Shown here in pieces: positions 2,150-22,489 of a DNA stretch of 24,996 nucleotides (positions are counted from its first letter, which is position 1; each line of letters starts with the position of its first letter). The notes under the pieces are model-generated. The model was given only the letters and a program-made list of their open reading frames with translations, searched no databases and was not told the origin of the DNA. The DNA lies in IMG/VR virus record IMGVR_UViG_3300045988_118627. One strand, written 5' to 3'. Origin of the DNA: a virus. Its lineage: Duplodnaviria; Heunggongvirae; Uroviricota; Caudoviricetes. The position numbers were made by a program, and so were the translations under genes.

Positions 2150-2659
2150 ATGTTTGATTACCAAGTTTCCAAACATCCACATTTTGATGAAGCCTGTCGT
2201 GCATTTGCACTGCGCCACAATCTGGTGCAACTGGCAGAACGTGCAGGCATGAATGTGCAGATTCTGCGGAACAAGCTGAACCCAGCTCAGCCTCATTTAT
2301 TAACCGCACCAGAAATCTGGCTGCTTACCGATCTGACTGAAGATTCAACGCTGGTAGATGGTTTTCTGGCACAGATTCATTGTCTGCCATGTGTACCGAT
2401 TAATGAGGTGGCAAAAGAGAAACTGCCACATTACGTCATGAGTGCAACCGCAGAGATCGGGCGTGTTGCTGCAGGTGCGGTGTCTGGCGATGTAAAAACC
2501 TGTGCCGGTCGTCGTGATGCTATCAGCAGCATTAACTCTGTAACACGACTGATGGCGCTGGCTGCTGTTTCATTGCAGGCCCGTTTACAGGCTAATCCTG
2601 CGATGGCGAGTGCAGTTGATACCGTGACTGGCCTCGGTGCTTCATTCGGTTTGCTGTGA
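2150..2659 (+). CDS. cII: CII-like lysogeny establishment regulator (186 CII family)
   Basis: From ATG 2150: [49 protein letters not shown]...[25 protein letters not shown]... resembles 186 CII as recalled. The track ORF start at 2144 is a TTG; the ATG at 2150 with an AGAGG RBS is preferred. Confidence 0.85.
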
Positions 2660-2666
2660 GGTGCTT

Positions 2667-2963
2667 ATGCTGACGAAAGAACCATCATTTGCATCGCTGC
2701 TGGTAAAACAAAGCCCGGCAATGCACTACGGTCACGGCTGGATCACGGGTGAGGATGGAAAACGCTGGCATCCATGTCATTCACAAGATGAATTGCTGTC
2801 TGAATTGACCACGAGGAAACGGAGAAAGTCCAAATGTATGCGGCAGAAAGTGAAGTGGTTTATCAGTTTCGTTACAGAGGGGAGAGTTATTCAGTACCTG
2901 AAGATGATTTGCTCTGTTGCTATCCGTCATTGTCGGGAGATGGCAGTTACTTTTTCACGTTAA
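2667..2963 (+). CDS. fil: Fil-like small early protein (possible host filamentation/cell-division inhibitor); 3' end uncertain
   Basis: ORF from ATG 2667 (GAGGTG RBS) reads MLTKEPSFASLLVKQSPAMHYGHGWITGEDGKRWHPC..., in the position of 186 fil directly after cII. The C-terminal third looks low-complexity and overlaps a better-looking ORF in another frame. Confidence 0.45.
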   Translation: MLTKEPSFASLLVKQSPAMHYGHGWITGEDGKRWHPCHSQDELLSELTTRKRRKSKCMRQKVKWFISFVTEGRVIQYLKMICSVAIRHCREMAVTFSR

Positions 2964-3058
2964 AGGATGGGACGTTTTTACGGGGAGAGCAGGTTAAAGA
3001 GACGATACGAAAAAATGTATCTCCTCTTGAGCGTTACCGTAAGAACAAAGAACGATAG
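2834..3058 (+). CDS. Hypothetical early protein (74 aa), possibly a dhr-position gene
   Basis: ORF MYAAESEVVYQFRYRGESYSVPEDDLLCCYPSLSGDGSYFFTLKDGTFLRGEQ... with GGAG 9 nt upstream of the ATG. It overlaps the fil-frame ORF by about 130 nt. Confidence 0.35.
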   Translation: MYAAESEVVYQFRYRGESYSVPEDDLLCCYPSLSGDGSYFFTLKDGTFLRGEQVKETIRKNVSPLERYRKNKER

Positions 3059-3080
3059 CTGCGTTTGGGGAATATGAAGT

Positions 3081-3422
3081 ATGGCAATTAATGGCGCTGC
3101 AGCAACTGTTCCATTAAGCCCAGGTGAACGCCTGAATGGACTTAATCATATTGCGGAATTAAGGGCGAAAGTATTTGGCCTGAATATTGAGTCAGAGCTT
3201 GAGCGGTTTATTAAAGATATACGTGATCCACGGGATGTTAATTATGAACGAAATAAACGAGCACTGGCTGCTATATTCTTTATAGCAAAAATTCCAGCTG
3301 AACGTCATAGCATCAGCATTAATGAGCTGACCACTGACGAAAAGCGGGAGTTGATTAAAGTAATGAATCATCTTCGTGCAGTGGTGAGCTTATTTCCCAG
3401 ACGGCTAGCCATGCCGAATTAA
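3081..3422 (+). CDS. Hypothetical phage early protein (113 aa)
   Basis: Intact ORF in the early rightward operon with protein-like composition; no recognised motif. Confidence 0.5.
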   Translation: MAINGAAATVPLSPGERLNGLNHIAELRAKVFGLNIESELERFIKDIRDPRDVNYERNKRALAAIFFIAKIPAERHSISINELTTDEKRELIKVMNHLRAVVSLFPRRLAMPN

Positions 3423-3489
3423 CCAATTAATGAAATTCATGGCGTAAACCCGCCGGGCATTCCTTTATCTAAATTCAGGAGAATTGATT

Positions 3490-3723
3490 ATGCGTAATAT
3501 TGAAACCCTCTCGACTAAAACCGGACCGGATGACGCAGGACTTAATATTTTACTGACAGAGGCTCGTCTGGAAGAACGTCGGGCAAGAGCTGAAGCAATG
3601 GCAGCTCGCCTTGATAGCCTTGCGTGCCATATCACATCCCGCCAGCTAAACCACGTTGAAGCGGCTGAACTGCTGCGTGTGGCAGCTGAAGCAATCCAGA
3701 ACGAAGCGCAGGAGATCCACTAA
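3490..3723 (+). CDS. Hypothetical phage early protein (77 aa, Ala/Glu-rich helical)
   Basis: ATG at 3490 preceded by AGGAG (3476-3480). The track start at 3484 is a TTG. Confidence 0.5.
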   Translation: MRNIETLSTKTGPDDAGLNILLTEARLEERRARAEAMAARLDSLACHITSRQLNHVEAAELLRVAAEAIQNEAQEIH

Positions 3724-3950
3724 TGGCTGATGCAATGGATCTCGTACAGCAGCGCGTTGAAGAAGAACGCCAGCGTCATATCCATGCTGCCCGTGCCAAA
3801 ACGCCGGGCGTGTCCCGCGTGCTTTGCATTGAGTGTGAAGCGCCAATTCCGCCAGCACGCCGCCGTGCCATTCCGGGTGTGCAGCTTTGCATTACCTGTC
3901 AGGAAATCGCAGAGCTGAAAGGCAAACATTACAACGGAGGTGCTGTATGA
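3723..3950 (+). CDS. DksA/TraR-family C4 zinc-finger protein
   Basis: CIECEAPIPPARRRAIPGVQLCITCQE is a CxxC-N17-CxxC arrangement typical of TraR/DksA-type zinc fingers found in P2-like early operons. Its stop overlaps the dam start (ATGA). Confidence 0.7.
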   Translation: MADAMDLVQQRVEEERQRHIHAARAKTPGVSRVLCIECEAPIPPARRRAIPGVQLCITCQEIAELKGKHYNGGAV

Positions 3951-4804
3951 GCACCATCCTGAAATGGGCGGGAAATAAAACCGCCATTATGTCCGAACTG
4001 AAAAAGCATCTTCCTGCTGGCCCGCGACTGGTTGAACCTTTCGCGGGTTCCTGTGCAGTGATGATGGAGACGGAGTACCCCAGCTATCTTGTTGCGGATA
4101 TTAATCCTGATTTAATCAACCTCTATAAAAAGGTTGCTGCTGATTGTGAATCGTTTATATCTCGCGCCAGAGTTTTATTTGAGATCGCAAACAGGGAGGT
4201 GGCTTATTACAACATAAGGCAGGAGTTTAATTACTCAACTGAAATTACTGATTTCATGAAAGCGGTATATTTCCTGTATCTCAATCGTCACGGTTACCGT
4301 GGTTTATGTCGCTATAACAAGAGCGGGCATTTCAACATTCCCTACGGTAATTATAAAAATCCGTATTTCCCTGAAAAAGAAATTCGCGCATTTGCAGAAA
4401 AAGCCCAGCGAGCAACGTTTATCTGCGCCAGCTTTGATGAAACGCTGGCGATGTTGAAGGCGGGGGATGTGGTGTATTGCGATCCGCCGTATGACGGTAC
4501 GTTTTCCGGCTATCACACTGATGGTTTCACTGAAGATGACCAGTATCACCTGGCATCCGTTCTTGAACATCGGTCATCAGAAGGACATCCGGTCATTGTT
4601 TCTAACAGTGATACATCCCTGATCCGTTCGCTGTATCGCAATTTTACTCACCACTATATCAAGGTAAAACGCAGCATCGGTGTGGCAGCTGGCGAGGGTA
4701 AATCAGCAACAGAAATCATTGCTGTTTCCGGGCCGCGCTGCTGGGTGGGATTTGATTATTCGCGTGGCGTGGATAGTTCTGCCGTGTACGGAGTACGTGC
4801 ATGA
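3947..4804 (+). CDS. dam: DNA adenine methyltransferase (Dam-like, orphan N6-adenine MTase)
   Basis: From ATG 3947 (GGAGG RBS): [23 protein letters not shown]...VEPFAGS...[26 protein letters not shown]...VVYCDPPY, close to E. coli Dam motifs including DPPY. The track start at 3887 is rejected as a 5' extension. Confidence 0.88.
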
Positions 4805-7215
4805 GCCATGCCGATATGAACAACTGCTGCGGCTTTAACGAGGCTGCCGCAGCGTTCTCATGGAACAGCCCGAAAAAGGCCATTAACCCTTATCTGGACC
4901 CGGCGGAAGTTGCGCCGGTTTCTGCGCTTTCAAACCTGATCGCTCTGTACGCTGCCGATAACGAGCAGGAACACCTGCGCCGCGAGGCACTGAGTGATCA
5001 GGTCTGGGAGCGTTATTTCTTTAATGAATCCCGTGATCCTGTCCAGCGCGAAATGGAGCAGGATAAGCTCATTAGTCGGGCAAAGCTGGCGCATGAGCAG
5101 CAGCGTTTTAATCCAGATATGGTCATTCTGGCGGACGTCAATGCCCAGCCTTCCCATATCAGCAAGCCGCTGATGCAACGTATTGAATACTTCAGCAGCT
5201 TGGGCAGGCCAAAGGCTTATTCCCGCTATTTGCGTGAGACGATTAAGCCATGTTTGGAGCGACTGGAGCATGTACGCGACAGCCAGCTATCTGCATCTTT
5301 TCGTTTTATGGCAAGCCATGTAGGGCTGGACGGCCTGCTGATTCTGCCTGAAATGAGTCAGGATCAGGTGAAACGCCTGTCTACTCTTGTCGCTGCGCAT
5401 ATGAGCATGTGTCTTGATGCCGCTTGTGGTGATTTGTACGCCACCGATGATGTTAAGCCAGAAGAAATCCGCAAGACATGGGAAAAGGTGGCAGCAGAAA
5501 CCCTGCGACTGGATGTTATCCCGCCTGCGTTTGAGCAACTTCGTCGGAAAAGAAACCGCCGTAAACCCGTGCCCTATGAACTCATTCCGGGTTCGCTGGC
5601 GCGTATGTTGTGCGCCGACTGGTGGTACCGGAAATTATGGAAAATGCGTTGCGAATGGTGGGAAGAGCAGTTGCGTGCTGTCTGCCTGGTCAGCAAAAAA
5701 GCATCTCCCTATGTCAGCTATGAAGCCGTGATGCATAAACGTGAGCAGCGCCGTAAGTCGCTGGAGTTTTTCCGTTCTCATGAACTGGTGAACGAAGACG
5801 GCGACACGCTGGACATGGAGGATGTGGTAAACGCCAGCAGCAGCAACCCGGCGCATCGCCGCAATGAGATGATGGCCTGTGTTAAAGGTCTGGAGCTTAT
5901 CGCAGAAATGCGCAGTGACTGTGCCGTTTTCTACACTATCACCTGTCCGTCGCGTTTCCATTCCACGCTCAATAACGGCAGACCAAACCCGACCTGGACA
6001 AACGCGACGGTAAGACAAAGCAGCGATTATCTGGTCGGCATGTTTGCTGCATTTCGTAAGGCTATGCACAAAGCCGGGTTGCGCTGGTATGGCGTGCGGG
6101 TGGCTGAACCGCATCATGACGGCACAGTTCACTGGCACCTGTTGTGTTTCATGCGCAAAAAAGACCGCCGCGCCATTACTGCATTGTTGCGTAAGTTTGC
6201 CATCCGTGAAGACCGCGAGGAGCTGGGCAATAACACGGGGCCACGCTTTAAGTCTGAGCTGATAAACCCGCGCAAAGGTACGCCAACAAGCTACATCGCG
6301 AAATACATCAGTAAGAACATTGACGGGCGTGGTCTGGCTGGCGAGATCAGCAAGGAAACGGGTAAATCCCTGCGTGATAACGCTGAATACGTTAATGCCT
6401 GGGCGTCTCTGCATCGTGTTCAGCAATTCCGCTTCTTTGGCATTCCGGGGCGTCAGGCTTACCGTGAACTGCGATTGCTGGCTGGTCAGGCGGCAAGGCA
6501 ACAGGGGGACAAAAAAGCAGGTGCGCCGGTACTGGATAACCCGCGCCTTGATGCAATCCTGGCTGCTGCTGATGCTGGTTGTTTTGCCACCTACATCATG
6601 AAGCAGGGCGGCGTACTGGTTCCCCGCAAATATCACCTCATCAGAACTGCTTATGAAATCAACGAAGAGCCGACCGCCTATGGCGATCACGGTATTCGTA
6701 TTTATGGCATCTGGTCACCCATTGCAGAGGGCAAGATCTGCACTCATGCGGTGAAGTGGAAAATGGTTCGTAAGGCCGTTGACGTTCAGGAGGCGGCAGC
6801 CGACCAGGGCGCTTGCGCCCCTTGGACTCGTGGCAATAACTGTCCCCTTGCTGAAAATTTGAACCAACATGAGAAAGATGAATCAGCAGATGGGGATACC
6901 AGAACGGACATTACCTGCATGGATGACAAGGAATTGCACGATTACCTGCACAGTATGAGCAAAAAAGAGCGCCGGGAACTGGCAGCAAGATTGCGCCTGG
7001 TTAAACCGAAACGGCGTAAAGACTACAAACAGCGAATTACAGAGTATCAGCGTCAGCAGCTCGTCTATGAACTGAAGTCCAGAGGATTTGATGGCAGCGA
7101 GAAAGAGGTCGATTTGCTCCTTTGCGGTGGCAGTATTCCGTCAGGAGCAGGCCTGCGTATCTTCTATCGGAACCAGCGTTTGCAGGAAGATGATAAGTGG
7201 CGGAACCTGTATTAA
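4801..7215 (+). CDS. A: Replication initiation protein A (rolling-circle HUH endonuclease, P2 gene A family)
   Basis: 804-aa ORF with the HUH motif [13 protein letters not shown] and a tyrosine region [11 protein letters not shown], in the P2 A position after the early genes. Its start overlaps the dam stop (ATGA). Confidence 0.9.
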
Positions 7216-7368
7216 TTACGCGGGTTAACAATTCGTGCTCTTAATAATACCAGGCATATCAGGCTGATGAACGTAAAAAAACGTTTTACATCAGTAAGAT
7301 TATTATATACTGTAAATATAAACAGTGGTTATATGTACAGTATTGCGTATGGTGTTATAGGAGGAAAG

Positions 7369-7557
7369 ATGCAGGACTATTTTTTGGAGTCTTTGAAGCT
7401 CCAGCGCATTGATTTTTTTCTTAAGCTTGTAGCGGCTAGTGAGTGTAGTGATGAAGAGAAGGGGCTAGCTCTGCAGTGGGTTTCTGAATTGACTGATGAG
7501 TTGATGGCGAAAATTCGAAGCCATGAATACAGTAGGTCGATGGATGTAATCAGTTGA
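7369..7557 (+). CDS. Hypothetical small acidic protein (62 aa) in an AT-rich cargo region
   Basis: ATG 7369 preceded by AGGAGG (7356-7361); followed by a hairpin terminator. No recognisable domain. Confidence 0.35.
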   Translation: MQDYFLESLKLQRIDFFLKLVAASECSDEEKGLALQWVSELTDELMAKIRSHEYSRSMDVIS

Positions 7558-7589
7558 GCTTGTTTCGTTAGGACTTGATAAGGGAACCG

Positions 7590-7614
7590 AAAAGGGGCAT
7601 TAAGCCCCTTTCTC
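7590..7614. terminator. Bidirectional intrinsic terminator between convergent genes
   Basis: AAAA-GGGGC-ATTAA-GCCCC-TTTCTC: GC stem with an A-tract on one side and a T-tract on the other, between a + gene ending at 7557 and a - gene ending at 7625. Confidence 0.5.
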
Positions 7615-7624
7615 ATAAGTTGAT

Positions 7625-7924
7625 TTAGTTGTTACCCAAAGAGCCGGCCATGGCTGCATATTTAATTTCTTCGCTGGGTATTTCAGGATGTAGTTGAATT
7701 TGCCTGATGATATAGCCAGGAACTTCTTCACTCCACAGTTTCGCCGCGTCCTTACAGACCTTATACGCGAAGTCTCTATTCTCAAAGGCATAGGATTTTC
7801 CGTATGCATATTGCTGACAGGCATGAACATAAGCTCCGAAGTCGCCGTCTTTATCTGGCAAAGCACATCCAGCTAAGGCTATGATGATTGCTACTAACGT
7901 AAAGGAGAAAGTTATACGTTTCAT
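7625..7924 (-). CDS. Small lipoprotein (99 aa), unknown function
   Basis: MKRITFSFTLVAIIIALAGC... has a signal peptide with lipobox LAGC. It is on the opposite strand to the flanking phage operons, like an accessory (moron) gene. Confidence 0.6.
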   Translation of the reverse strand: MKRITFSFTLVAIIIALAGCALPDKDGDFGAYVHACQQYAYGKSYAFENRDFAYKVCKDAAKLWSEEVPGYIIRQIQLHPEIPSEEIKYAAMAGSLGNN

Positions 7925-7980
7925 GGTCTCTTTCTAAGCGTTTAGCATTATTTAACTAAGGGGTATCTGCCGTGATTTGG

Positions 7981-8009
7981 TAGTCCCTGATATATATTCT
8001 CAGGGACTA
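7981..8009 (-). repeat. Perfect 10-bp inverted repeat (TAGTCCCTGA ... TCAGGGACTA) between the two lipoprotein genes
   Basis: Arms at 7981-7990 and 8000-8009 with a 9-nt AT loop, immediately downstream of the 8033..8839 gene on the minus strand. No clear U-tract, so it may be a weak terminator, an RNA stability element or a protein-binding site. Confidence 0.4.
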
Positions 8010-8032
8010 TGCTGAAGTAGCTTTAATTTTGA

Positions 8033-8839
8033 TTATTTAGAAAGGTACTTATCTCTAAGTTGATTCAGTCTGTCAGCATCGCGTTCTGAAAACTCGGCGT
8101 CACCATAGATCGATTTCCCATCTGCGTCTTCAAGGCCAATGACTGTGACGGTAAATATAGCATCAGCCGGAACTTTAAGTTTTCCCCAATCAGAGTATCT
8201 ATTAGGGGCTAATTTCCAGTTGGCTTTCTCACCTGGTTCCAGACCTCCAGAAATTTTATAGTTGAAGACGTCAGAGAACCAAGGGACGCTTCTTCCTGGG
8301 CTGGCAATAACTCCTTTGAAGAATACTCTGGCAACCGCTTTGTCTGTTCCGTTTTCAACGCTAATATCCAGAATTGGCTGATCATTGCCGTAATCCTCTT
8401 TCTGGAAATAAAAACGGGAACGTTCGACCTTGAAGGCTTTCATTTTTTCCGCAGCCTGTGTTGCAGAGGTTTGTTTGGCTTCCAGTTCTTTTATTTCTTG
8501 CAGAGCCTGTTCTTTCTCTCTCTTCTCACGCTCAAGGCGAATAGTTTGTGCGTAATTTATAACCTCATCACCAGTTTTACCTTCCAACGCTGACTTAATT
8601 TTTGTTTCGTAGACGTCCCCAGAAGACGTTCCAGCCTGCATTAGCTCTCTCATGTTGATTTGGCTAAAGGCAACGACTTTAACTGCATCATCAAACTGAG
8701 CTTTTTTATCTGCAGGTAAGGACTCTCTTACTTTTTGAATGGACTCTTTCATCGACTGATCGCTTGATGCATCGATCTTCGGTTTGTCACAAGCAGTAAG
8801 CAGCAGAGCAAAAGCAATTACGCCAGTTAATTTCTTCAT
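8033..8839 (-). CDS. Lipoprotein with a central coiled-coil region (268 aa), unknown function
   Basis: From ATG at 8839: MKKLTGVIAFALLLTACDKPK... (lipobox LLTAC) followed by a charged helical segment (EREKREKEQALQEIKELEAKQ). The longer track ORF from 8911 is rejected as a 5' extension. Confidence 0.6.
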   Translation of the reverse strand: MKKLTGVIAFALLLTACDKPKIDASSDQSMKESIQKVRESLPADKKAQFDDAVKVVAFSQINMRELMQAGTSSGDVYETKIKSALEGKTGDEVINYAQTIRLEREKREKEQALQEIKELEAKQTSATQAAEKMKAFKVERSRFYFQKEDYGNDQPILDISVENGTDKAVARVFFKGVIASPGRSVPWFSDVFNYKISGGLEPGEKANWKLAPNRYSDWGKLKVPADAIFTVTVIGLEDADGKSIYGDAEFSERDADRLNQLRDKYLSK

Positions 8840-9361
8840 ATCCCTATCCCAATCGTAAAAAAACAAGGCTAATCCTAACAGGATTAGCGGGCATGACAAA
8901 CTCATAGCCATATAGGTGTGCTGTATAAATTAGCGGGATGAGAAAGCCTGCACAGACCCTCATGTTGAAACTTGATTTTAGCTCAAAAGAGCTGACACTA
9001 AATAACTGCGCGGAATAATGCTCCACTTTCGGTTAGCCCTTGGCCCTTGCTGGGTAAGGCGTGGGGCCGTTTTCTTCGCCTGATCCTGCTGTATCTGGCC
9101 TACAGTATGTTGTCCTTACGCGACATGCCACATGTCAGTAAACGGCAGGTGTAGCAGTATTAGACGCAGCTATTTAGTGTGTATTAAGCTGGCTCATATT
9201 TATGACTGGTTTCAAGGTTTGACCGATTTTCATGTCATGCATGTCTATGCTGCATGAGTTCGCATGATCGTTTGAGGATCGGTTTGGCTAAGACATGCCA
9301 GAACTGGCGGGCTTTTGCTCATGTCATGCAGGTGCATGAAAACTACTACATAAAGCGGGCA

Positions 9362-9380
9362 GGCGTGGCGGGGATACGAG
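9362..9380. other. Candidate cos (cohesive end) site of the P2/186 family
   Basis: GGCGTGGCGGGGATACGAG shares its first 13 nt with the 19-nt cohesive ends of 186/P2 as recalled (GGCGTGGCGGGGAAAGCAT / GGCGAGGCGGGGAAAGCAC). It lies in a 620-bp non-coding region with repeated CATG-containing motifs. Confidence 0.35.
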
Positions 9381-9532
9381 CGCGCGTTAAGCCATATAAG
9401 AGTTATATATTGATTTGATTGCTGGACATACATACAGTATCGCTCTATCATCTAATAAATCTTAGGGTATTTGACAATGTTTGGATAAAATGGAACCTAA
9501 CTTATTCATAATCCGCTAAACAGGGATGTCAG

Positions 9533-10447
9533 ATGCCATACCAATTGGTAGAGCTTAGCCCCGTAGCTAACGATCTTGAACAGTTAGGAACCAAAGAGAA
9601 GTTTTGGTTCTATTTCTCCGATGACACTGTAAATTTGCAGTTGTTTAAGTACTCTAGGCCAGGTACTGGCGAGCATTGGTCTGAAAAGTGTGCTGCTGAG
9701 TTATGTCATTTGCTTAACATTCCACATGCTAGCTATGATTTGGCGCGATACAATGGTCGATTCGGTGTGGTGACTCAGAATATCATTCCATCTGGTTTCC
9801 GGATGGTAATGGGAAATGAAGTGCTTCACAGTTCGACATTCGATTATCCTGGGCCTTTACAAGCCGGGGAAAAGCCGGTAAGGGTCAGAGAACACACTGT
9901 CACAAGGGTCTTGGGTTGTTTAGATAGGGAATCTATCAAGCCTCCTCCGAGTGTATATGATCTAACCGGGCTAAATGCAGCAGATGTATTTTGTGGATAT
10001 TTGATGCTCGATGCACTTGTGAGTAATCAAGATCGCCACCATGAAAATTGGGCAATCATGCTTAACAATGAAACTGGTGAGCAGTTTTTGTGTCCAACAT
10101 ACGATCATGCCGCTAGTTTAGGAAGGGAGATGTTAGATGATGAGCGTAACGAACGGCTTAATACTAAAGATAAAAATCGACAAATCCCATGTTTTGTAAG
10201 AAAAGCTCGCTCTGAGCTATTCAAAGCAAAAACTGATAAAAAGCCCTTGCTGACTGTTGAAGCATTTCAACATGCAGTTGAAGGGAGAGTTGCCGCTCGC
10301 GACCATTGGTTAGGTAAGTTGAGCGTTTTAACAGAAGATTCCATTACAGATGTGTTTAACCAAGTGCCTTCATCGTGTATATCCGACAGTGCACGTAGAT
10401 TTGCAACGTTAATGGTAATGGAAAATCGCAGAAGGTTACTAGAATGA
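9533..10447 (+). CDS. HipA-like Ser/Thr kinase core (HipT-like, lacking the HipA N-terminal subdomain); candidate toxin/effector
   Basis: 304-aa ORF with LGTKEKFWF (resembles the HipA GxQEK ATP-binding motif), ALVSNQDRHHENWAIML (catalytic-loop-like D-x-H-x-x-N) and CPTYDHAAS (resembles the HipA aPxYD metal-binding motif). Its stop overlaps the next gene's start (ATGA). Confidence 0.65.
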   Translation: MPYQLVELSPVANDLEQLGTKEKFWFYFSDDTVNLQLFKYSRPGTGEHWSEKCAAELCHLLNIPHASYDLARYNGRFGVVTQNIIPSGFRMVMGNEVLHSSTFDYPGPLQAGEKPVRVREHTVTRVLGCLDRESIKPPPSVYDLTGLNAADVFCGYLMLDALVSNQDRHHENWAIMLNNETGEQFLCPTYDHAASLGREMLDDERNERLNTKDKNRQIPCFVRKARSELFKAKTDKKPLLTVEAFQHAVEGRVAARDHWLGKLSVLTEDSITDVFNQVPSSCISDSARRFATLMVMENRRRLLE

Positions 10448-11184
10448 CTAATACAAACTCCGTTTACGTCGCATGGCAGGCACCAGATACCAGAGACTGG
10501 CATGTTGTTGGTAACTTGCAAGAGCGCAAATCGGGGTATGTTTTCAGGTATACCAAAGGTGCTCTTAAATCTTCTAAATTTACAAAGTTTAGCGGCATGA
10601 GTGATGTTCGTGAAACTTATGTATCGGAAGAATTGTTTCCTCTTTTTAAAAATCGCCTTTTATCACCGAGACGTCCAGAGTATCCGAGTTTCATTAAATG
10701 GCTTGGATTTGAAGAAGATAAGGTAAATCCTATCGATATTCTTGCTCGCTCGGGAGGCTTACGAAGCACTGATCAGCTGCAGATTTTCAAAAAAATTGAT
10801 TTTGATTCTGATGGTAACTTTGAGCATTTTTTCTTCTTACATGGACTTGGTTACTTGAATAGCTTAGCTAATGCTCGTGTATCTGAATTGAAACCGGGGC
10901 AAATTTTGCGTCTTTGCTTGGATCTTCAAAATGAATACGATGGGGATGCTGTTGTCGTTCGTGCAGATAAACCAGCTGAAATCGTTGGTTACTGCCCTAG
11001 GTATTTAAGTAATGACATCAAGAAGATGTTATTGGATGATCCAAAATCAATCACTTTAACGGTCGAAAAGATTAGCGATGATGCTCCTCATAACTATCGG
11101 TTATTATGTAAATTATCAGGGGTACTAAGCCAAGCCTGTCAATCGACGCTGATTCCTCAAGATGAGTTTGAACCTATTGAGTAA
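10444..11184 (+). CDS. Fusion protein: HipA N-terminal-subdomain-like (HipS-like) region plus C-terminal HIRAN-like domain
   Basis: N-terminal part ...EELFPLFKNRLLSPRRPEYPSFIKWLGFEEDKVNPIDILARSGGLRSTDQLQIF resembles the HipA N-domain (FNFFDNLLPEG...LARRLGL...LLGRDCAGAL, from memory). C-terminal part ...LRLCLDLQNEYDGDAVVVRADKPAEIVGYCPRYLSNDIKKML fits the HIRAN consensus (L.L.rEpdNpyDpnAi.V...G.lGYvPr). Confidence 0.6.
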   Translation: MTNTNSVYVAWQAPDTRDWHVVGNLQERKSGYVFRYTKGALKSSKFTKFSGMSDVRETYVSEELFPLFKNRLLSPRRPEYPSFIKWLGFEEDKVNPIDILARSGGLRSTDQLQIFKKIDFDSDGNFEHFFFLHGLGYLNSLANARVSELKPGQILRLCLDLQNEYDGDAVVVRADKPAEIVGYCPRYLSNDIKKMLLDDPKSITLTVEKISDDAPHNYRLLCKLSGVLSQACQSTLIPQDEFEPIE

Positions 11185-11190
11185 ATGAAG

Positions 11191-11214
11191 AAAAGCCACC
11201 AAACGGTGGCTTTT
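11191..11214. terminator. Bidirectional intrinsic terminator between the kinase/HIRAN operon and portal gene Q
   Basis: AAAAGCCACC-AAAC-GGTGGCTTTT: 6-bp GC-rich stem with a 4-nt loop, flanked by an A-run and a T-run, between convergent gene ends at 11184 and 11219. Confidence 0.55.
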
Positions 11215-11218
11215 CTTA

Positions 11219-12259
11219 TTATGGGGCTATATCTAGCGAGTAGGTATCAAACCGTATCGCCTCCTTGCCAAGCCAATCATTCATCTCCTGTAATCGCTTT
11301 TGTAGTGGCATTAGCTCATTTCGGACGAATACACGGCTTGCCTTCTCCACATCCCCAAACCCCCCAACATTATTCGGCATAATCCCCATCATTTGCGGTG
11401 GCACACGGTGCGCTGCCATCATGTCATCGCGGCTGACATTTTTGATATTCAGAAACTCATCCTTCGCCGCGACTTCTGACAATGGGATGATCTGAAGTCC
11501 GTCCTTTTTGCCGTTAGGCGAGTACATAAACAGATTGCGGAAGTTACCTGGTCCTTTGGCGCTTTTCATCGCGTTACGGAGGTTGTTTACATCCTCCTGG
11601 TTCTGCGCGGCGTCGGTCATGTACATGATGAAGCCTGCATGACTGCCGTTAATGTAATACTTTCGACGGAACAGCGTGGCGGACTCGTTGAGCAGGGCTG
11701 ACGGAATGGCAGAAAGATAACCGGGCAGGCCGTAGATCTCCTGGTTGATATCCGGTTCCATCAGGTGAAAAATGCTGCCTTTCGTGAACTGATACGGTTG
11801 CGTTGTTATGCCGTATTGCACAAACCAGTAGGTATCCAGGTCTAATCCACGTCGGGTGTATTTTGCCAGGGCAGGCTCAAGGGCGATAACTTCACCGAAT
11901 CGGTTCGTGCGTTTCTCCAGGTAGGCGTTACCAAATACCAGATAGTCCTGCACAAAACGCGAAAAAGCCTGCTGGCTGAGCAGCGGATGAGGGATATAGG
12001 TACTGGTCAGAATGTTGCACTTTACTGCAATCGGGGAACTGTGATGCACGGCGGCGCGGAAGGTGCGCGCCAGTCCGTCAAAGCTGACGGGCGGCTCATA
12101 CCAACGGTCCATCTGTACGCATTCCACATAGTCCAGCAGTTCACGGCGGTCCAGAACAGGAACGGGATCGCCGAAGCTGAATGCTTCGGCTGTAGTTTGA
12201 CTTTTAAGCTGGATCTGTTTCGTCGCCGCAGCTCGGTTCTTCTTACTCTTTCCCATCAA
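11219..12259 (-). CDS. Q: Portal protein (P2 gpQ family)
   Basis: 346-aa ORF directly downstream of and overlapping (ATGA) the large terminase gene, in the P2 Q position; size and gene order match the P2 portal. Confidence 0.88.
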   Translation of the reverse strand: MMGKSKKNRAAATKQIQLKSQTTAEAFSFGDPVPVLDRRELLDYVECVQMDRWYEPPVSFDGLARTFRAAVHHSSPIAVKCNILTSTYIPHPLLSQQAFSRFVQDYLVFGNAYLEKRTNRFGEVIALEPALAKYTRRGLDLDTYWFVQYGITTQPYQFTKGSIFHLMEPDINQEIYGLPGYLSAIPSALLNESATLFRRKYYINGSHAGFIMYMTDAAQNQEDVNNLRNAMKSAKGPGNFRNLFMYSPNGKKDGLQIIPLSEVAAKDEFLNIKNVSRDDMMAAHRVPPQMMGIMPNNVGGFGDVEKASRVFVRNELMPLQKRLQEMNDWLGKEAIRFDTYSLDIAP

Positions 12260-19139: not shown

Positions 19140-19533
19140 AGCGGTGCCTTATGTCCGCAATAACCCGGACAAACTGCATCTGTTTGTGGATAACGGTTCG
19201 CTGGTTGCTACAGGGGCCAGCTCCATGTCATGGGAGTATCGTTACACCCTGAACGTAGTGGTTGAGGATTTCAGCGGCGACCAGAATCTGTTGATGGCCC
19301 CGGTTTTGCTGTGGCTGCGGGATAACCAGCCCGATGCCATCAATAACCCGGCGTTACGGGAAAAGTTATTCACCTTTGAGGTGGATATTCTGCGCAATGA
19401 TGTCTGTGATATCAGCCTGAACCTGCAACTGACGGAGCGTGTGCTGGTCAGCACTGACGGCAGTGTGTCGAGCGTTGAAGCGATAACGGAACCCGATGAA
19501 CCTGAAGAAATGTGGACGGTGAAACGTGGCTGA
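19102..19533 (+). CDS. R: Tail completion protein R (P2 gpR family)
   Basis: ...SLRHALNKAVPYVRNNPDKLHLFVDNGSL...YRYTLNVVVEDFSGDQNLLMAPVLLWLRDNQPD resembles P2 gpR as recalled. The start is probably GTG 19102 after AGGAG; the track start at 19081 is a TTG. Confidence 0.8.
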   Translation: MNKPQSLRHALNKAVPYVRNNPDKLHLFVDNGSLVATGASSMSWEYRYTLNVVVEDFSGDQNLLMAPVLLWLRDNQPDAINNPALREKLFTFEVDILRNDVCDISLNLQLTERVLVSTDGSVSSVEAITEPDEPEEMWTVKRG

Positions 19534-19969
19534 ATTGCAGAAAGTGGACGACTGGCTGAGTGCCTTACTGGCGAATCTGGAGCCAGCTGCAAGAAGTCGC
19601 ATGATGCGCCAACTGGCACAGGAGCTGCGCCGGACACAGCAGCAAAACATCAGGATGCAGCGCAATCCAGATGGCAGTAGTTATGAGCCGCGACGGGTAA
19701 CAGCGCGCAGTAAAAAAGGCCGCATCAAACGTCAGATGTTTGCGAAGCTGCGCACCACAAAATACCTGAAAACTGCCGCCAGCGCCGATTCTGCCAGTGT
19801 GCAGTTTGAAGATAAGGTGCAGCGCATTGCCCGTGTTCACCATTATGGACTGCGTGATCGTGTCAGTAAACGTGGGCCGATAGTTCATTATTCCAGACGA
19901 TGCTTGCTAGGTATTAATGAGCCTATTAAAAAAGAAGTTGAGAGATTTTTGATATATTGTATTTCATAA
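19526..19969 (+). CDS. S: Tail completion protein S (P2 gpS family); 3' end encoded by AT-rich island DNA
   Basis: MAELQKVDDWLSALLANLEPAARSRMMRQLAQELRRTQQQNIRMQRNPDGS...IARVHHYGLRDRV resembles P2 gpS as recalled. The last ~25 codons (...LLGINEPIKKEVERFLIYCIS) lie in AT-rich sequence. Confidence 0.78.
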   Translation: MAELQKVDDWLSALLANLEPAARSRMMRQLAQELRRTQQQNIRMQRNPDGSSYEPRRVTARSKKGRIKRQMFAKLRTTKYLKTAASADSASVQFEDKVQRIARVHHYGLRDRVSKRGPIVHYSRRCLLGINEPIKKEVERFLIYCIS

Positions 19970-19984
19970 CTTGCGTATATTGTT

Positions 19985-20011
19985 GCCCAGTGGCGATCTG
20001 GGCTTTATTTT
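19985..20011 (+). terminator. Intrinsic terminator after S
   Basis: GCCCAG-TGGCGAT-CTGGGC followed by TTTATTTT; a GC-rich hairpin inside an otherwise AT-rich island, overlapping the stop of the minus-strand KAP NTPase gene. Confidence 0.5.
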
Positions 20012-21878
20012 AATTTTCAATGCTTTGCTTTAATTTATCTATTGCGGGAGTTAAACAATCATTTATGAGCTCATCGATTTGTAATGATAATATATTTGAG
20101 TTTATTTGAGTTTTCTTTTCAATTAGCTTTCTAATTAGCTCACGGTGGAAAAAACGCTCTGCAGAAAGCTCTTTTAGATAAGGGGATTTGTTGTATCGGT
20201 TTTTTATAGCATAGCCAAAGAAATGCATCTCGGTTGAGTCTACCAGTATTTTTGTTAGTTGTTCAGCATCACCAAAATAAAGAACTGGTTTGTCGTGAAA
20301 TGAATAAATATCTTTGTTGTTGAAATTTAGATGTGCGTAATATTCATGATTTCCGGACTGTATTAATTTGAATATCTTTTGAGCGTCTTGGCTAAGTTGA
20401 TATGCAATTAACACATTTTTCTTTTGTTCTATGTAATTAACAAGCTCCTTGAATTCCCTAGTTTCTTTGCAATGAAAAGTTAATCCTCCCCATCGCTCAT
20501 CCTTAATGTCTTCATCAAAAATTTCATAACTAGTTTGTATCATTCCTTTTTCTGCTAAAATATCAACAGCAGAGTAGGCTAAGTTTGTTAAATAGTGTTC
20601 GTTGATGGGTTTTATATGTTCTCTGGATAAATGAAGTAATAATCCGTAAATATGCTTAAGAACATGCTCGTTCAATATTTCAAAATTAATAAGCGTATGA
20701 AGTGTTGAATTGTAATTTTCCTCAAATTCTGTGTATTTTAATCGATCATAATTCCAAAGTTGTGTCCATGGCTCAATTGTTTTATTAGAAACACTGACAA
20801 ATGTTATTAATTCAGATATTATTTTTTCTTGATTGATTTTCTGATTGTCAATTATATCGATCCAGGTATCCTCGTCTAAGATTAAATTTGACAAATAAGT
20901 TGTACCATATTTTTCAATTAAATTGGATGTGTATTTATTATCATCATCTATTTTATATGTTAACAAGTCAGAAACGGTTCGTTTTATTTTATTAGATTCA
21001 AAATAGAGTATAAAATGTAATTGATATAATCTGAGTGTCAAATCTGAATTTTGCTGAAACTGTGCTGGTAATATTTTGAATATTCTTTCAAAAAAAGAAA
21101 TTTGCCTTTCAATTAATCTAATGTTATTACACTCTGAAAGAGTGAGTAAGCTCTCAATATTTTTTATGTTCAGAATGGTGTTGAGTTCGCTAGTTATATT
21201 TTTTAGAAAATATTCGTAGGCGTGAGAATGTTGAGGTTGATATTTGAAAGTTATACCTATAACTTTTTCTTTTGCATCTAAATAAATACCATCATGATTT
21301 TTATTTCTAGCGGGGTTTAATATTTCTCTCTCATTGGCGATAATCAAAACCTTGCATTCTTTTTCTTCAACGAAATTATTTATATAACCAAATATAGAAT
21401 TCCAATCTAATTCGCAGCGTTCAAGATCATCAAATATCAATATGGTGTTTTCTGGTGAGTAGTAAAAGTCTTTAATACTTACGTTGGGTAGTTCTGGGGA
21501 GCCCTCTACACTTGTAACGAATGAATCACTTAAATCAATCTTAAGTGTGCCTTTAATTAGTGCCTTAGTTAGTGTGCCAGCAAGCAACATGCCTTTAGAT
21601 GAAAGGAAGGGATGCATTTGCTTGAAAATTATTTCGTCAATTTGTTCGGTGGATTTTATTCCATATAATGAGATCATTAATGGCTTAACTTCCCCTTTTA
21701 GTGATTCTTCATTCATTAATTTACGGACAAACCATGTTTTCCCGCTTCCCCATTCGCCGTCAATCATTACTGCGAAATTAGGGGATTTTTCAAGATCCAC
21801 TAAATAATTAAGATATGAGGTTAGCTCTTCATTGTAATTCATTGGATTGTAAGATCCTTCATACAATTTGAAAATCAC
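20010..21878 (-). CDS. KAP-family P-loop NTPase (candidate anti-phage/abortive-infection cargo)
   Basis: 622-aa ORF with Walker A MIDGEWGSGKTWF and Walker B ILIFDDLERC, the GxWGxGKT and hhhhDDLDR/ER motifs of KAP NTPases. It is very AT-rich, on the strand opposite the late genes. Start is GTG at 21878 or ATG at 21842. Confidence 0.8.
   Translation of the reverse strand: MIFKLYEGSYNPMNYNEELTSYLNYLVDLEKSPNFAVMIDGEWGSGKTWFVRKLMNEESLKGEVKPLMISLYGIKSTEQIDEIIFKQMHPFLSSKGMLLAGTLTKALIKGTLKIDLSDSFVTSVEGSPELPNVSIKDFYYSPENTILIFDDLERCELDWNSIFGYINNFVEEKECKVLIIANEREILNPARNKNHDGIYLDAKEKVIGITFKYQPQHSHAYEYFLKNITSELNTILNIKNIESLLTLSECNNIRLIERQISFFERIFKILPAQFQQNSDLTLRLYQLHFILYFESNKIKRTVSDLLTYKIDDDNKYTSNLIEKYGTTYLSNLILDEDTWIDIIDNQKINQEKIISELITFVSVSNKTIEPWTQLWNYDRLKYTEFEENYNSTLHTLINFEILNEHVLKHIYGLLLHLSREHIKPINEHYLTNLAYSAVDILAEKGMIQTSYEIFDEDIKDERWGGLTFHCKETREFKELVNYIEQKKNVLIAYQLSQDAQKIFKLIQSGNHEYYAHLNFNNKDIYSFHDKPVLYFGDAEQLTKILVDSTEMHFFGYAIKNRYNKSPYLKELSAERFFHRELIRKLIEKKTQINSNILSLQIDELINDCLTPAIDKLKQSIEN
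21848..21865. promoter_or_regulatory. Candidate late-promoter activator dyad TGT-N12-ACA upstream of V (pV-like)
   Basis: TGTaagatccttcatACA sits about 50 bp upstream of the V start codon, at the right edge of the AT-rich island and overlapping the 5' end of the KAP NTPase ORF. Confidence 0.35.
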
Positions 21879-21910
21879 TATTTTCTTTTGATTTCATGCA
21901 AACTGCAACC

Positions 21911-22489
21911 ATGAACGCACAACTCACAGAAATCATGCGCCTTATCACCAACCTGATCCGCACAGGTGTAGTCACCGAAGTGGACCGGGAAAACTGGCTT
22001 TGTCGGGTGAAAACGGGCGACCTTGAAACCAACTGGATTAACTGGCTGACGCTGCGCGCGGGTAATGCCCGCACATGGTGGCGACCATCGGAAGGTGAGC
22101 AGGTGGTGCTGCTGAGTCTGGGCGGCAATCTGGAAACCGCCTTTGCGCTGCCCGCTGTCTATTCGAATCAGTTCGCACCACCGTCGGCGTCGATGGACGC
22201 CTGTGTGACAGAACATCCTGACGGTGGCTGGTTTGAATACGAACCCGCTACCGGGCGCTGGTATGTCAGGGGAATCAAATCCATGGTCATTGAAGCTGCC
22301 GACAACATCACCCTGAAAACCAGTGAGTTTGTGCTGGAGGCCGACCGCACGCGTATTAACAGCGAAATGGTAATCAATGGTGGCGTTACCCAGGGCGGCG
22401 GTGCAATGAGTTCTAACGGAATTGTGGTTGATGCACATCAGCATACTGGCGTCCTGAAAGGCGGCGACACAACCGGAGGCCCGGTATGA
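21911..22489 (+). CDS. V: Baseplate assembly/spike protein V (P2 gpV family)
   Basis: From ATG 21911: MNAQLTEIMRLITNLIRTGVVTEVDRENWLCRVKTGDLETNWINWLT...SSNGIVVDAHQHTG resembles P2 gpV as recalled. The track start at 21896 is 5 codons upstream. Confidence 0.85.
   Translation: MNAQLTEIMRLITNLIRTGVVTEVDRENWLCRVKTGDLETNWINWLTLRAGNARTWWRPSEGEQVVLLSLGGNLETAFALPAVYSNQFAPPSASMDACVTEHPDGGWFEYEPATGRWYVRGIKSMVIEAADNITLKTSEFVLEADRTRINSEMVINGGVTQGGGAMSSNGIVVDAHQHTGVLKGGDTTGGPV

Follow-up and report, generated by a model that had tools for sequence, protein, structure and literature searches.

Two overlapping genes beside the cos site of a P2-type prophage encode a small HipA-family kinase and a HIRAN-domain protein. 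Do they defend the lysogen against other phages, do they merely stabilise the element that carries them, or do they serve the prophage's own cycle? The genes lie in IMG/VR record IMGVR_UViG_3300045988_118627 (Duplodnaviria; Heunggongvirae; Uroviricota; Caudoviricetes), of which the whole stretch of 24,996 nucleotides (nt) was analysed and is referred to here as the window. It is a P2/186-like prophage, in which genes for capsid and tail are accompanied by those for portal Q, terminase P, the replication protein gpA, a repressor of CI type and an adenine methylase of the D12 class. We found that the gene pair is almost certainly a member of the hipIN group, also catalogued as PDC-M03, and we argue below that it probably acts as a toxin-antitoxin-like anti-phage module.

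Assignment to this group involved both proteins. The PADLOC model PDC-M03A matched the kinase over residues 2-304 of 304 (expectation value (E) 2.1e-122), and PDC-M03B matched the partner over residues 1-244 of 246 (E 6.8e-93); PADLOC-DB v2 holds PDC-M03 as a candidate system consisting of HipA and HIRAN-domain proteins. The same bicistronic arrangement was named hipIN by Gerdes, Baerentsen & Brodersen (mBio 2021, PMC8262856), HipI being the kinase and HipN a HipS-like domain fused to HIRAN. Its organisation is identical to that of the window pair, with a kinase of 279-321 amino acids (aa) that lacks N-subdomain-1 followed by the HipS-like-HIRAN gene, and we found no architectural difference between the two; the window copy is enterobacterial and resides on a P2-type prophage. 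Since 955 clusters in the protein database are related to the kinase and 535 to HipN, and since a kinase stands upstream at 50 or more of the 63 hipN loci discussed below, the pairing is not due to chance.

The pair has been recorded several times. Gerdes et al. counted only 14 hipIN modules, and their Table 1 lists 'None' for main clade XI of the Hip tree, the clade of the HipI subclades (PMC8262856); the RefSeq accessions of the two window proteins, WP_001146828 and WP_000185756, do not occur in the accessible part of the supplementary text of that paper. Both accessions are entered between gpA and gpQ in Table S5A of Rousset et al. 2022 (PMC9122126), where the two-gene HIRAN-kinase is tabulated in the supplement and is neither discussed nor reported as tested in the main text; the 'HIRAN-kinase' proteins of Table S6 are 35% identical to both window proteins over their full length. 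Table S5A also holds a three-gene variant, 'DUF5051 + HipA_C + HIRAN', from E. coli P2 hotspots. Two later papers mention pairs of HipA and HIRAN proteins in passing as predicted defence genes, one of them naming PDC-M03. The supplement of DefensePredictor (Science 2026) lists WP_000185757, near-identical to the HipN of the window and represented in its cluster by WP_000185756, as an unvalidated 'Predicted novel defense gene' with log-odds of 5.5. A reading of the window made from the DNA letters alone (the sequence-only reading) knew of no description of this architecture as a defence system; given these precedents, its suggestion of novelty was wrong. Both the architecture and the phage-sensing hypothesis are already known, with function still inferred.

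The coordinates and lengths of the two genes given by the sequence-only reading, together with the overlap between them and all of the motifs that it quoted, proved exact on rechecking. The start codon of hipN overlaps the stop codon of the kinase gene by 4 nt (ATGA at 10444-10447), an arrangement consistent with translational coupling. Within the kinase, the Gly-rich loop consists of G19-T20-K21-E22-K23, and the motif GTKEKF occupies residues 19-24 (within LGTKEKFW, 18-25). The catalytic residues D167 and N172 bound the motif DRHHEN (residues 167-172, within SNQDRHHENW, 164-173), while the predicted Mg-binding D191 lies in PTYDH (residues 188-192, within CPTYDHAAS, 187-195). Alignment of the family profile with E. 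coli HipA using hhalign placed D167, N172 and D191 on HipA D309, N314 and D332; the HipA sequence was entered by hand and the scores were weak (E 0.05-0.08), with the register right at these three positions, and the alignment serves for residue numbering only. Eleven positions (G19, K21, W25, N165, D167, R168, H169, N172, W173, D191 and H192) were invariant in 45 kinases of 29-89% identity, in all of which position 20 was Thr or Ser, and D167, N172 and D191 were likewise invariant in 35 close homologues. Homologues of the kinase measured 298-325 aa.

Profile and structure comparisons agreed with these motifs. Scanned alone, the window kinase matched Pfam HipA_C with an E of 3.6e-4, which is under the curated cut-off; all 35 kinase homologues in the alignment matched HipA_C when scanned singly, which removes the doubt raised by the sub-threshold score. 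An AlphaFold2 model of the kinase (predicted local distance difference test score (pLDDT) 83.3, predicted template modelling score (pTM) 0.86) retrieved the Helicobacter pylori HipA-like kinase CtkA as its best Foldseek match (E 1.3e-10, template modelling score ~0.7), followed by HipA (9e-7) and Legionella HipT (5e-5). The fold matched CtkA, HipT and, of HipA, the core only, with N-subdomain-1 absent, and in sequence the kinase is far from both HipA and HipT. By its motifs and its predicted fold, the first open reading frame (ORF) is a core HipA-family Ser/Thr kinase that lacks N-subdomain-1 and has its active-site residues intact.

The partner protein appears to supply what the kinase lacks in a separate chain. 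Pfam HIRAN matched HipN of the window with an E of 1e-13, over the curated cut-off, and Couple_hipA matched with an E of 0.014, under its cut-off; among HipN homologues scanned singly, HIRAN was matched in 34 of 34 and Couple_hipA in 22 of 34. The stretch NEYDGDAVVVRADKPAEIVGYCPRYL, at residues 163-188, follows the HIRAN consensus. The weakly scoring hhalign comparison with the hand-entered HipA aligned HipN residues 20-72 to HipA residues 11-65, and the AlphaFold2 model of HipN reached a pLDDT of 88.6 and a pTM of 0.83. Among 58 HipN proteins, the most conserved block falls in the HipS-like domain (F34, Y36, Y59, S61, L64, F65, F68, R71, R77 and D110), and the HIRAN domain retains N163 (57/58), D166 (53/58), A169, G182 and P185. 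On profile and model evidence, HipN joins a domain of HipS fold to one of HIRAN fold. Taken together, the conserved residues of the kinase and of HipN bear the signature of an active kinase whose protein-protein interface is under constraint.

The sequence-only reading had described precisely this architecture, a kinase without the HipA N-subdomain accompanied in trans by a HipS-like region fused to HIRAN, and both profiles and predicted structures agree with it. Of the comparisons that it proposed, the Foldseek search bore out kinship with CtkA, HipA and HipT, while the Pfam search gave a mixed outcome, HIRAN being found directly and HipA_C and Couple_hipA remaining below threshold in the single sequences and emerging across the family.

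We then turn to how the pair behaves across genomes. One genome per species was scanned for relatives of HipN, yielding 63 loci, a set that was selected on hipN and is biased in that sense. These loci span Proteobacteria, Cyanobacteria, Acidobacteriota, Planctomycetota, Bacteroidota, Chloroflexota and Actinomycetota, and at least 50 of them have a near-full-length homologue of the kinase as the next gene upstream in the same orientation, with a gap of at most 71 nt; we regard the pairing as obligate. When all ORFs around the 63 loci were clustered, neither a third partner gene nor a helix-turn-helix (HTH) regulator recurred; further apparent ORF 'families' in these neighbourhoods were discarded as antisense artefacts. 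The remaining loci comprise contig ends, frameshifted kinases beside an intact hipN (L034, L038), a transposase of an insertion sequence (IS) between kinase and hipN (L046), and hipN genes left as orphans, with no kinase (L014, L026, L041, L055). An intact kinase accompanied by a disrupted hipN was not seen among the 63 loci, although these had been chosen for hipN. Broken pairs thus lose the kinase and keep hipN (L034, L038, L014, L026, L041, L055), the pattern expected of toxin loss.

The pair is also mobile. The operon had no megablast match among 50,697 phage records, and phage-borne homologues were found by protein-level search only. The kinase and the HipS-HIRAN protein adjoin an integrase both in 14-kb Vibrio cyclitrophicus prophage elements of Vinavirales type (L065, PQ189359, 10953-12646) and in Clostridioides difficile phage phiCDKH02 (L066, PP767789, locus 2592-4181), which are unrelated temperate phage lineages with the same cargo. 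Homologous pairs were found on cyanobacterial and actinobacterial plasmids as well. The two hipIN genes form a self-contained unit that has spread horizontally.

In the window, the pair sits in a setting known for such cargo. Within positions 8900-9540, the cos-region block (Table 1) was the sole part conserved in P2-like phage records (80 records, 80-95% identity), with matches in such phages from Klebsiella, Yersinia, Escherichia and Salmonella. The stretch GGCGTGGCGGGGA, which starts at ~9352-9353 as read by eye, resembles the P2 cos core in the Rousset pFR106 and pFR108 inserts. No ORF lies between cos and the kinase gene or between hipN and Q. GC content is 39-44% over 7000-11200 and 52-60% in the phage core; because of this difference, and with the cos block flanking it, the pair is foreign cargo placed between cos and Q. 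The same 1.75 kb recurred at ≥99% identity in 21 of 5,426 complete E. coli genomes, in all of which it is chromosomal, and the identical locus in NZ_CP042893 has Q annotated as a phage portal protein. The position of the module is that of the cos-proximal hotspot between gpA and gpQ of P2, which Rousset et al. 2022 (PMC9122126) showed to be a store of anti-phage systems. The cos-like site noted in the sequence-only reading is therefore real, and its placement of the genes between cos and Q in an accessory region was confirmed and equals this published defence hotspot.

Candidate expression signals flank the pair. The promoter candidate matches the sigma-70 consensus at 10 of 12 positions; this is a pattern match only, and such sites are no more frequent in this region than in shuffled sequence. 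No operator-like palindrome or repeat was found beside it, the repeats detected lying all within the cos block. The hairpin that fills the gap from hipN to the convergent Q folds as RNA with -21 kcal/mol (z -6.8), none of 200 shuffled sequences folding as well, and is likely a bidirectional terminator.

Table 1. Coordinates of the hipIN-type module, its domains, candidate signals and boundaries in the window
Feature	Position	Strand	Size or extent	Remarks
Kinase gene (ORF1, hipI-type; putative toxin/effector)	9533..10447	+	304 aa	RefSeq WP_001146828 'HipA domain-containing protein'
Partner gene (ORF2, hipN-type; putative antitoxin/sensor)	10444..11184	+	246 aa	RefSeq WP_000185756 'HIRAN domain-containing protein'
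HipS-like (HipA N-subdomain-1-like) domain of HipN	10444..10773	+	~residues 1-110	
HIRAN domain of HipN	10822..11127	+	residues 127-228	N163/D166 pocket motif NEYD
Sigma-70-like promoter candidate, TGGACA-17-TATCAT	9423..9451	+		~80 nt 5' of kinase start codon
Cos-region block	9238..9395	.		Left boundary of cargo; conserved in P2-like phages
Hairpin between convergent hipN and Q	11188..11217	.	13 bp	Right boundary of cargo
P2-type portal gene Q	11219..12259	-		Context, outside module; Pfam Phage_portal E 2.4e-19

Several features of the surroundings deserve record in their own right. At 9230-9338, in the cos-conserved block, TCATGTCATGCA(T/G)G occurs twice at a spacing of 89 nt, together with two pairs of 8-nt inverted repeats; these may be terminase-binding elements of cos. 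The operon matches two places in NZ_CP042893 (L001, strain CFSAN061772; locus 1-982, 20852-22261), where late control D and ogr genes stand on both sides of the prophage and a truncated tape-measure pseudogene is present, which suggests tandem or rearranged P2-like prophages.

Comparison with named Hip systems sharpens what the module is and is not. HipBST, known from E. coli O127:H6 and Legionella, has the gene order hipB-hipS-hipT and a stand-alone HipS of ~100 aa, which is the antitoxin of HipT, with Glu63 and Trp65 acting at the Gly-rich loop. In contrast, the module studied here lacks a HipB or other HTH gene, places the kinase first, and fuses its HipS-like domain to HIRAN downstream; in addition, its kinase is nearer to CtkA than to HipT. 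We rejected an assignment to HipBST on these grounds, i.e., the missing HipB, the fused HipS and the reversed gene order. HipL combines kinase, HipS-like and HIRAN domains in one chain (Gerdes 2021, PMC8262856), and so holds the same domain types as the window module in fused rather than split form. The HIRAN domains of HLTF and Rad5 belong to fork remodellers with an SNF2 helicase and RING, whereas that of the window is part of a predicted kinase-regulating module; bacterial lp_0118 (3k2y) is the listed HIRAN comparison for HipN.

Two further systems bear on the question of function. DS-6/HipAD (PDC-M66), which consists of a HipA-family kinase and a DUF3037 protein, is a validated defence system in which the kinase is needed and loss of the partner is toxic. 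It is the nearest experimentally validated analogue, having two genes with a HipA-family kinase as effector; it differs in that its partner is a DUF3037/DUF1829 protein and not HipS-HIRAN, and the window kinase gave no match to the PDC-M66 models at E≤1. The construct pFR108 of Rousset et al., 'Exonuclease + HipA', which we group with HipL, comes from the same P2 hotspot and, as far as the available part of that source extends, carries the kinase and a HipS-like stretch in a single chain. It has a DEDD exonuclease partner and shares with the window kinase only the catalytic motif (E 9e-9, 51 residues). In Actinobacteria, approximately one-third of DEDD deoxydinucleotidase (diDNase) genes adjoin HipA/HIRAN pairs (Nucleic Acids Research 2025, PMC11706625). 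These observations, together with the DUF5051 variant noted above, suggest a recurrent link of small-DNA exonucleases with the HipA/HIRAN kinase system, the exonuclease being absent from the window copy.

How might such a module work? Gerdes et al. proposed that HIRAN recognises the DNA ends of invading phages or replicative intermediates, leading to kinase activation and abortive infection (PMC8262856). By analogy with HipBST and DS-6/HipAD, HipN's HipS-like domain would hold the kinase inactive. An infecting phage would yield free 3'-OH or single-stranded DNA (ssDNA) ends, and binding of HIRAN to these would relieve the inhibition. The released kinase would then phosphorylate an essential host factor, probably a translational one, just as GltX is the target of HipA and TrpS that of HipT, and the ensuing growth arrest would abort infection, protecting the lysogen population and with it the prophage. 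Arguing from these related systems, we put the probability that hipIN acts as a toxin-antitoxin-like anti-phage module at roughly 0.6. The more specific idea that the trigger is the binding of HIRAN to DNA ends is tentative, and on the same analogies is somewhat more apt to be wrong than right. A coupling of DNA-end sensing to kinase-mediated growth arrest, as put forward in the sequence-only reading, is plausible.

A number of observations weigh against the anti-phage reading. Free 3'-OH ends are plentiful in uninfected cells, and because they are abundant in the host, an end sensor would need some further means to tell phage from host. In the aligned HipN family we found no obvious conserved counterpart of HipS Trp65, the residue that inhibits HipT, so the inhibitory mechanism of HipS is not simply transferable. 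Within the family, the HIRAN motif NxYD is not constant at its aromatic position, and in structure the kinase is nearer to CtkA than to HipA or HipT. pFR108 was cloned, yet falls outside the three further P2-hotspot systems, besides the old/tin control, that are reported to protect against the eight phages used (PMC9122126). Finally, in the literature searched we found no experimental study of any hipIN, HipN, HipL, PDC-M03 or HIRAN-kinase member, literature mentions being bioinformatic only.

We considered what else the module could be. One alternative is plain addiction, in which a toxin-antitoxin pair stabilises the prophage and other mobile elements by post-segregational killing, has no dedicated anti-phage role, and relies on HIRAN for the DNA binding by which the complex is autoregulated or tethered to the nucleoid. 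The occurrence of the module on plasmids and beside integrases of several unrelated mobile elements fits this idea, as does the toxin-first order with coupled translation that is common among toxin-antitoxin modules. Moreover, there is no HTH partner, so the autoregulation performed by HipB in hipBA and hipBST would need another DNA-binding function, and the related pFR108 is without reported defence. However, the HIRAN domains that have been characterised bind 3' ends or ssDNA and not specific duplex operators, and no operator-like palindrome accompanies the promoter candidate. The hotspot is, in addition, enriched for validated defence systems, and a machine-learning call by DefensePredictor points the same way. 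We regard addiction as an unlikely explanation of the module, with the proviso that addiction and defence are not mutually exclusive. Another alternative is that HipN is an obligate targeting or activating subunit, which completes the kinase in trans and, through HIRAN, brings it to DNA 3' ends; the complex would phosphorylate DNA-bound replication or recombination proteins rather than aminoacyl-tRNA synthetases, and would serve direct, not abortive, defence or regulation. N-subdomain-1 is an integral part of active full-length HipA, and it is there that HipN aligns. The missing Trp65 counterpart is in keeping with such a role, the three-domain single chains of HipL are hard to square with a simple labile antitoxin, and the pTM of the HipN model suggests a rigid two-domain unit. 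Nevertheless, HipS is an antitoxin in the only split system studied, the partner in DS-6/HipAD neutralises its kinase, and orphan hipN genes and disrupted kinases fit the loss of a toxin better than that of a harmless enzyme. Both the subunit role and this mode of action therefore strike us as improbable, more so than addiction.

It is also conceivable that the module serves the prophage's own cycle, for instance by sensing DNA damage or rolling-circle or cos-end intermediates in order to time host shut-off at induction. With cos immediately on one side and Q on the other, the module occupies the left end of the packaged genome. Both the gpA nick that starts P2-type replication and cos cleavage make free 3' ends, and in eukaryotes HIRAN domains work at forks that are damaged or stalled. 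Against this stands the presence of the same pair in unrelated phages that replicate and package their DNA differently, on plasmids and in chromosomal settings of many phyla, as well as a base composition foreign to the phage core. Furthermore, carriage by just 21 of 5,426 complete E. coli genomes marks it as dispensable cargo outside the P2 programme, and we hold a role in the prophage cycle to be very improbable. Least credible of all is that the genes are a decaying, non-functional remnant of cargo. Frameshifts or IS insertions do affect some homologous loci, but nothing of the kind is specific to the window locus, where both ORFs are intact and ≥99% identical in the 21 genomes, all catalytic and domain-core residues are kept, and the coupled start and stop codons and the strong terminator hairpin are present.

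The prophage carries other accessory genes in addition to the hipIN pair. Low-GC cargo also lies on the other side of cos, where a gene at 8033-8911 (-) encodes a 292-aa DUF6694 protein (E 4.3e-22) with an internal start followed by a lipoprotein-like signal (MKKLTGVIAFALLLTAC), and two small ORFs at 7625-7924 (-) and 7267-7557 (+) are without a Pfam or PADLOC match. The NZ_CP042893 locus with the identical operon has different genes across cos (a DinI-like protein and a 177-aa hypothetical protein), indicating that variation on this side of cos is independent of hipIN. Farther along, a gene at 20010-21878 (-) encodes a P-loop NTPase of the KAP family (622 aa; Pfam E 1.8e-16), which is matched by PDC-S49, a single-gene candidate of PADLOC (E 6.4e-135). 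The gene stands as an insertion on the opposite strand, with a gpS-like tail completion gene (19526-19969) on one side and a gpV-like baseplate gene (21896-22489) on the other, at what we take to be the place where P2 carries orf30, and this looks like a second accessory or defence cargo site of the prophage. A 188-aa ORF beside it (21878..22444, -) was dismissed as spurious, being antisense to the gpV-like gene.

What does the locus mean for the biology of Hip kinases? The module reveals no new kind of system, the hypothesis attached to it dating from 2021 and standing so far as a computational prediction only. The window copy is nonetheless a convenient test case, being a compact 1.8-kb unit native to E. 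coli with its own candidate promoter region and terminator, and the 2021 hypothesis is directly testable in a standard host because P2-hotspot assays have already validated other systems there. If HipN were a targeting subunit after all, the module would go beyond the published hipIN hypothesis and would couple the sensing of nucleic-acid ends to a protein kinase in a way new to bacterial immunity. Should the published hypothesis hold, the HIRAN 3'-end reader known from HLTF and Rad5 would gate a HipA-family kinase in a bacterial immune module, and persistence-type Hip kinases would be tied directly to phage sensing.

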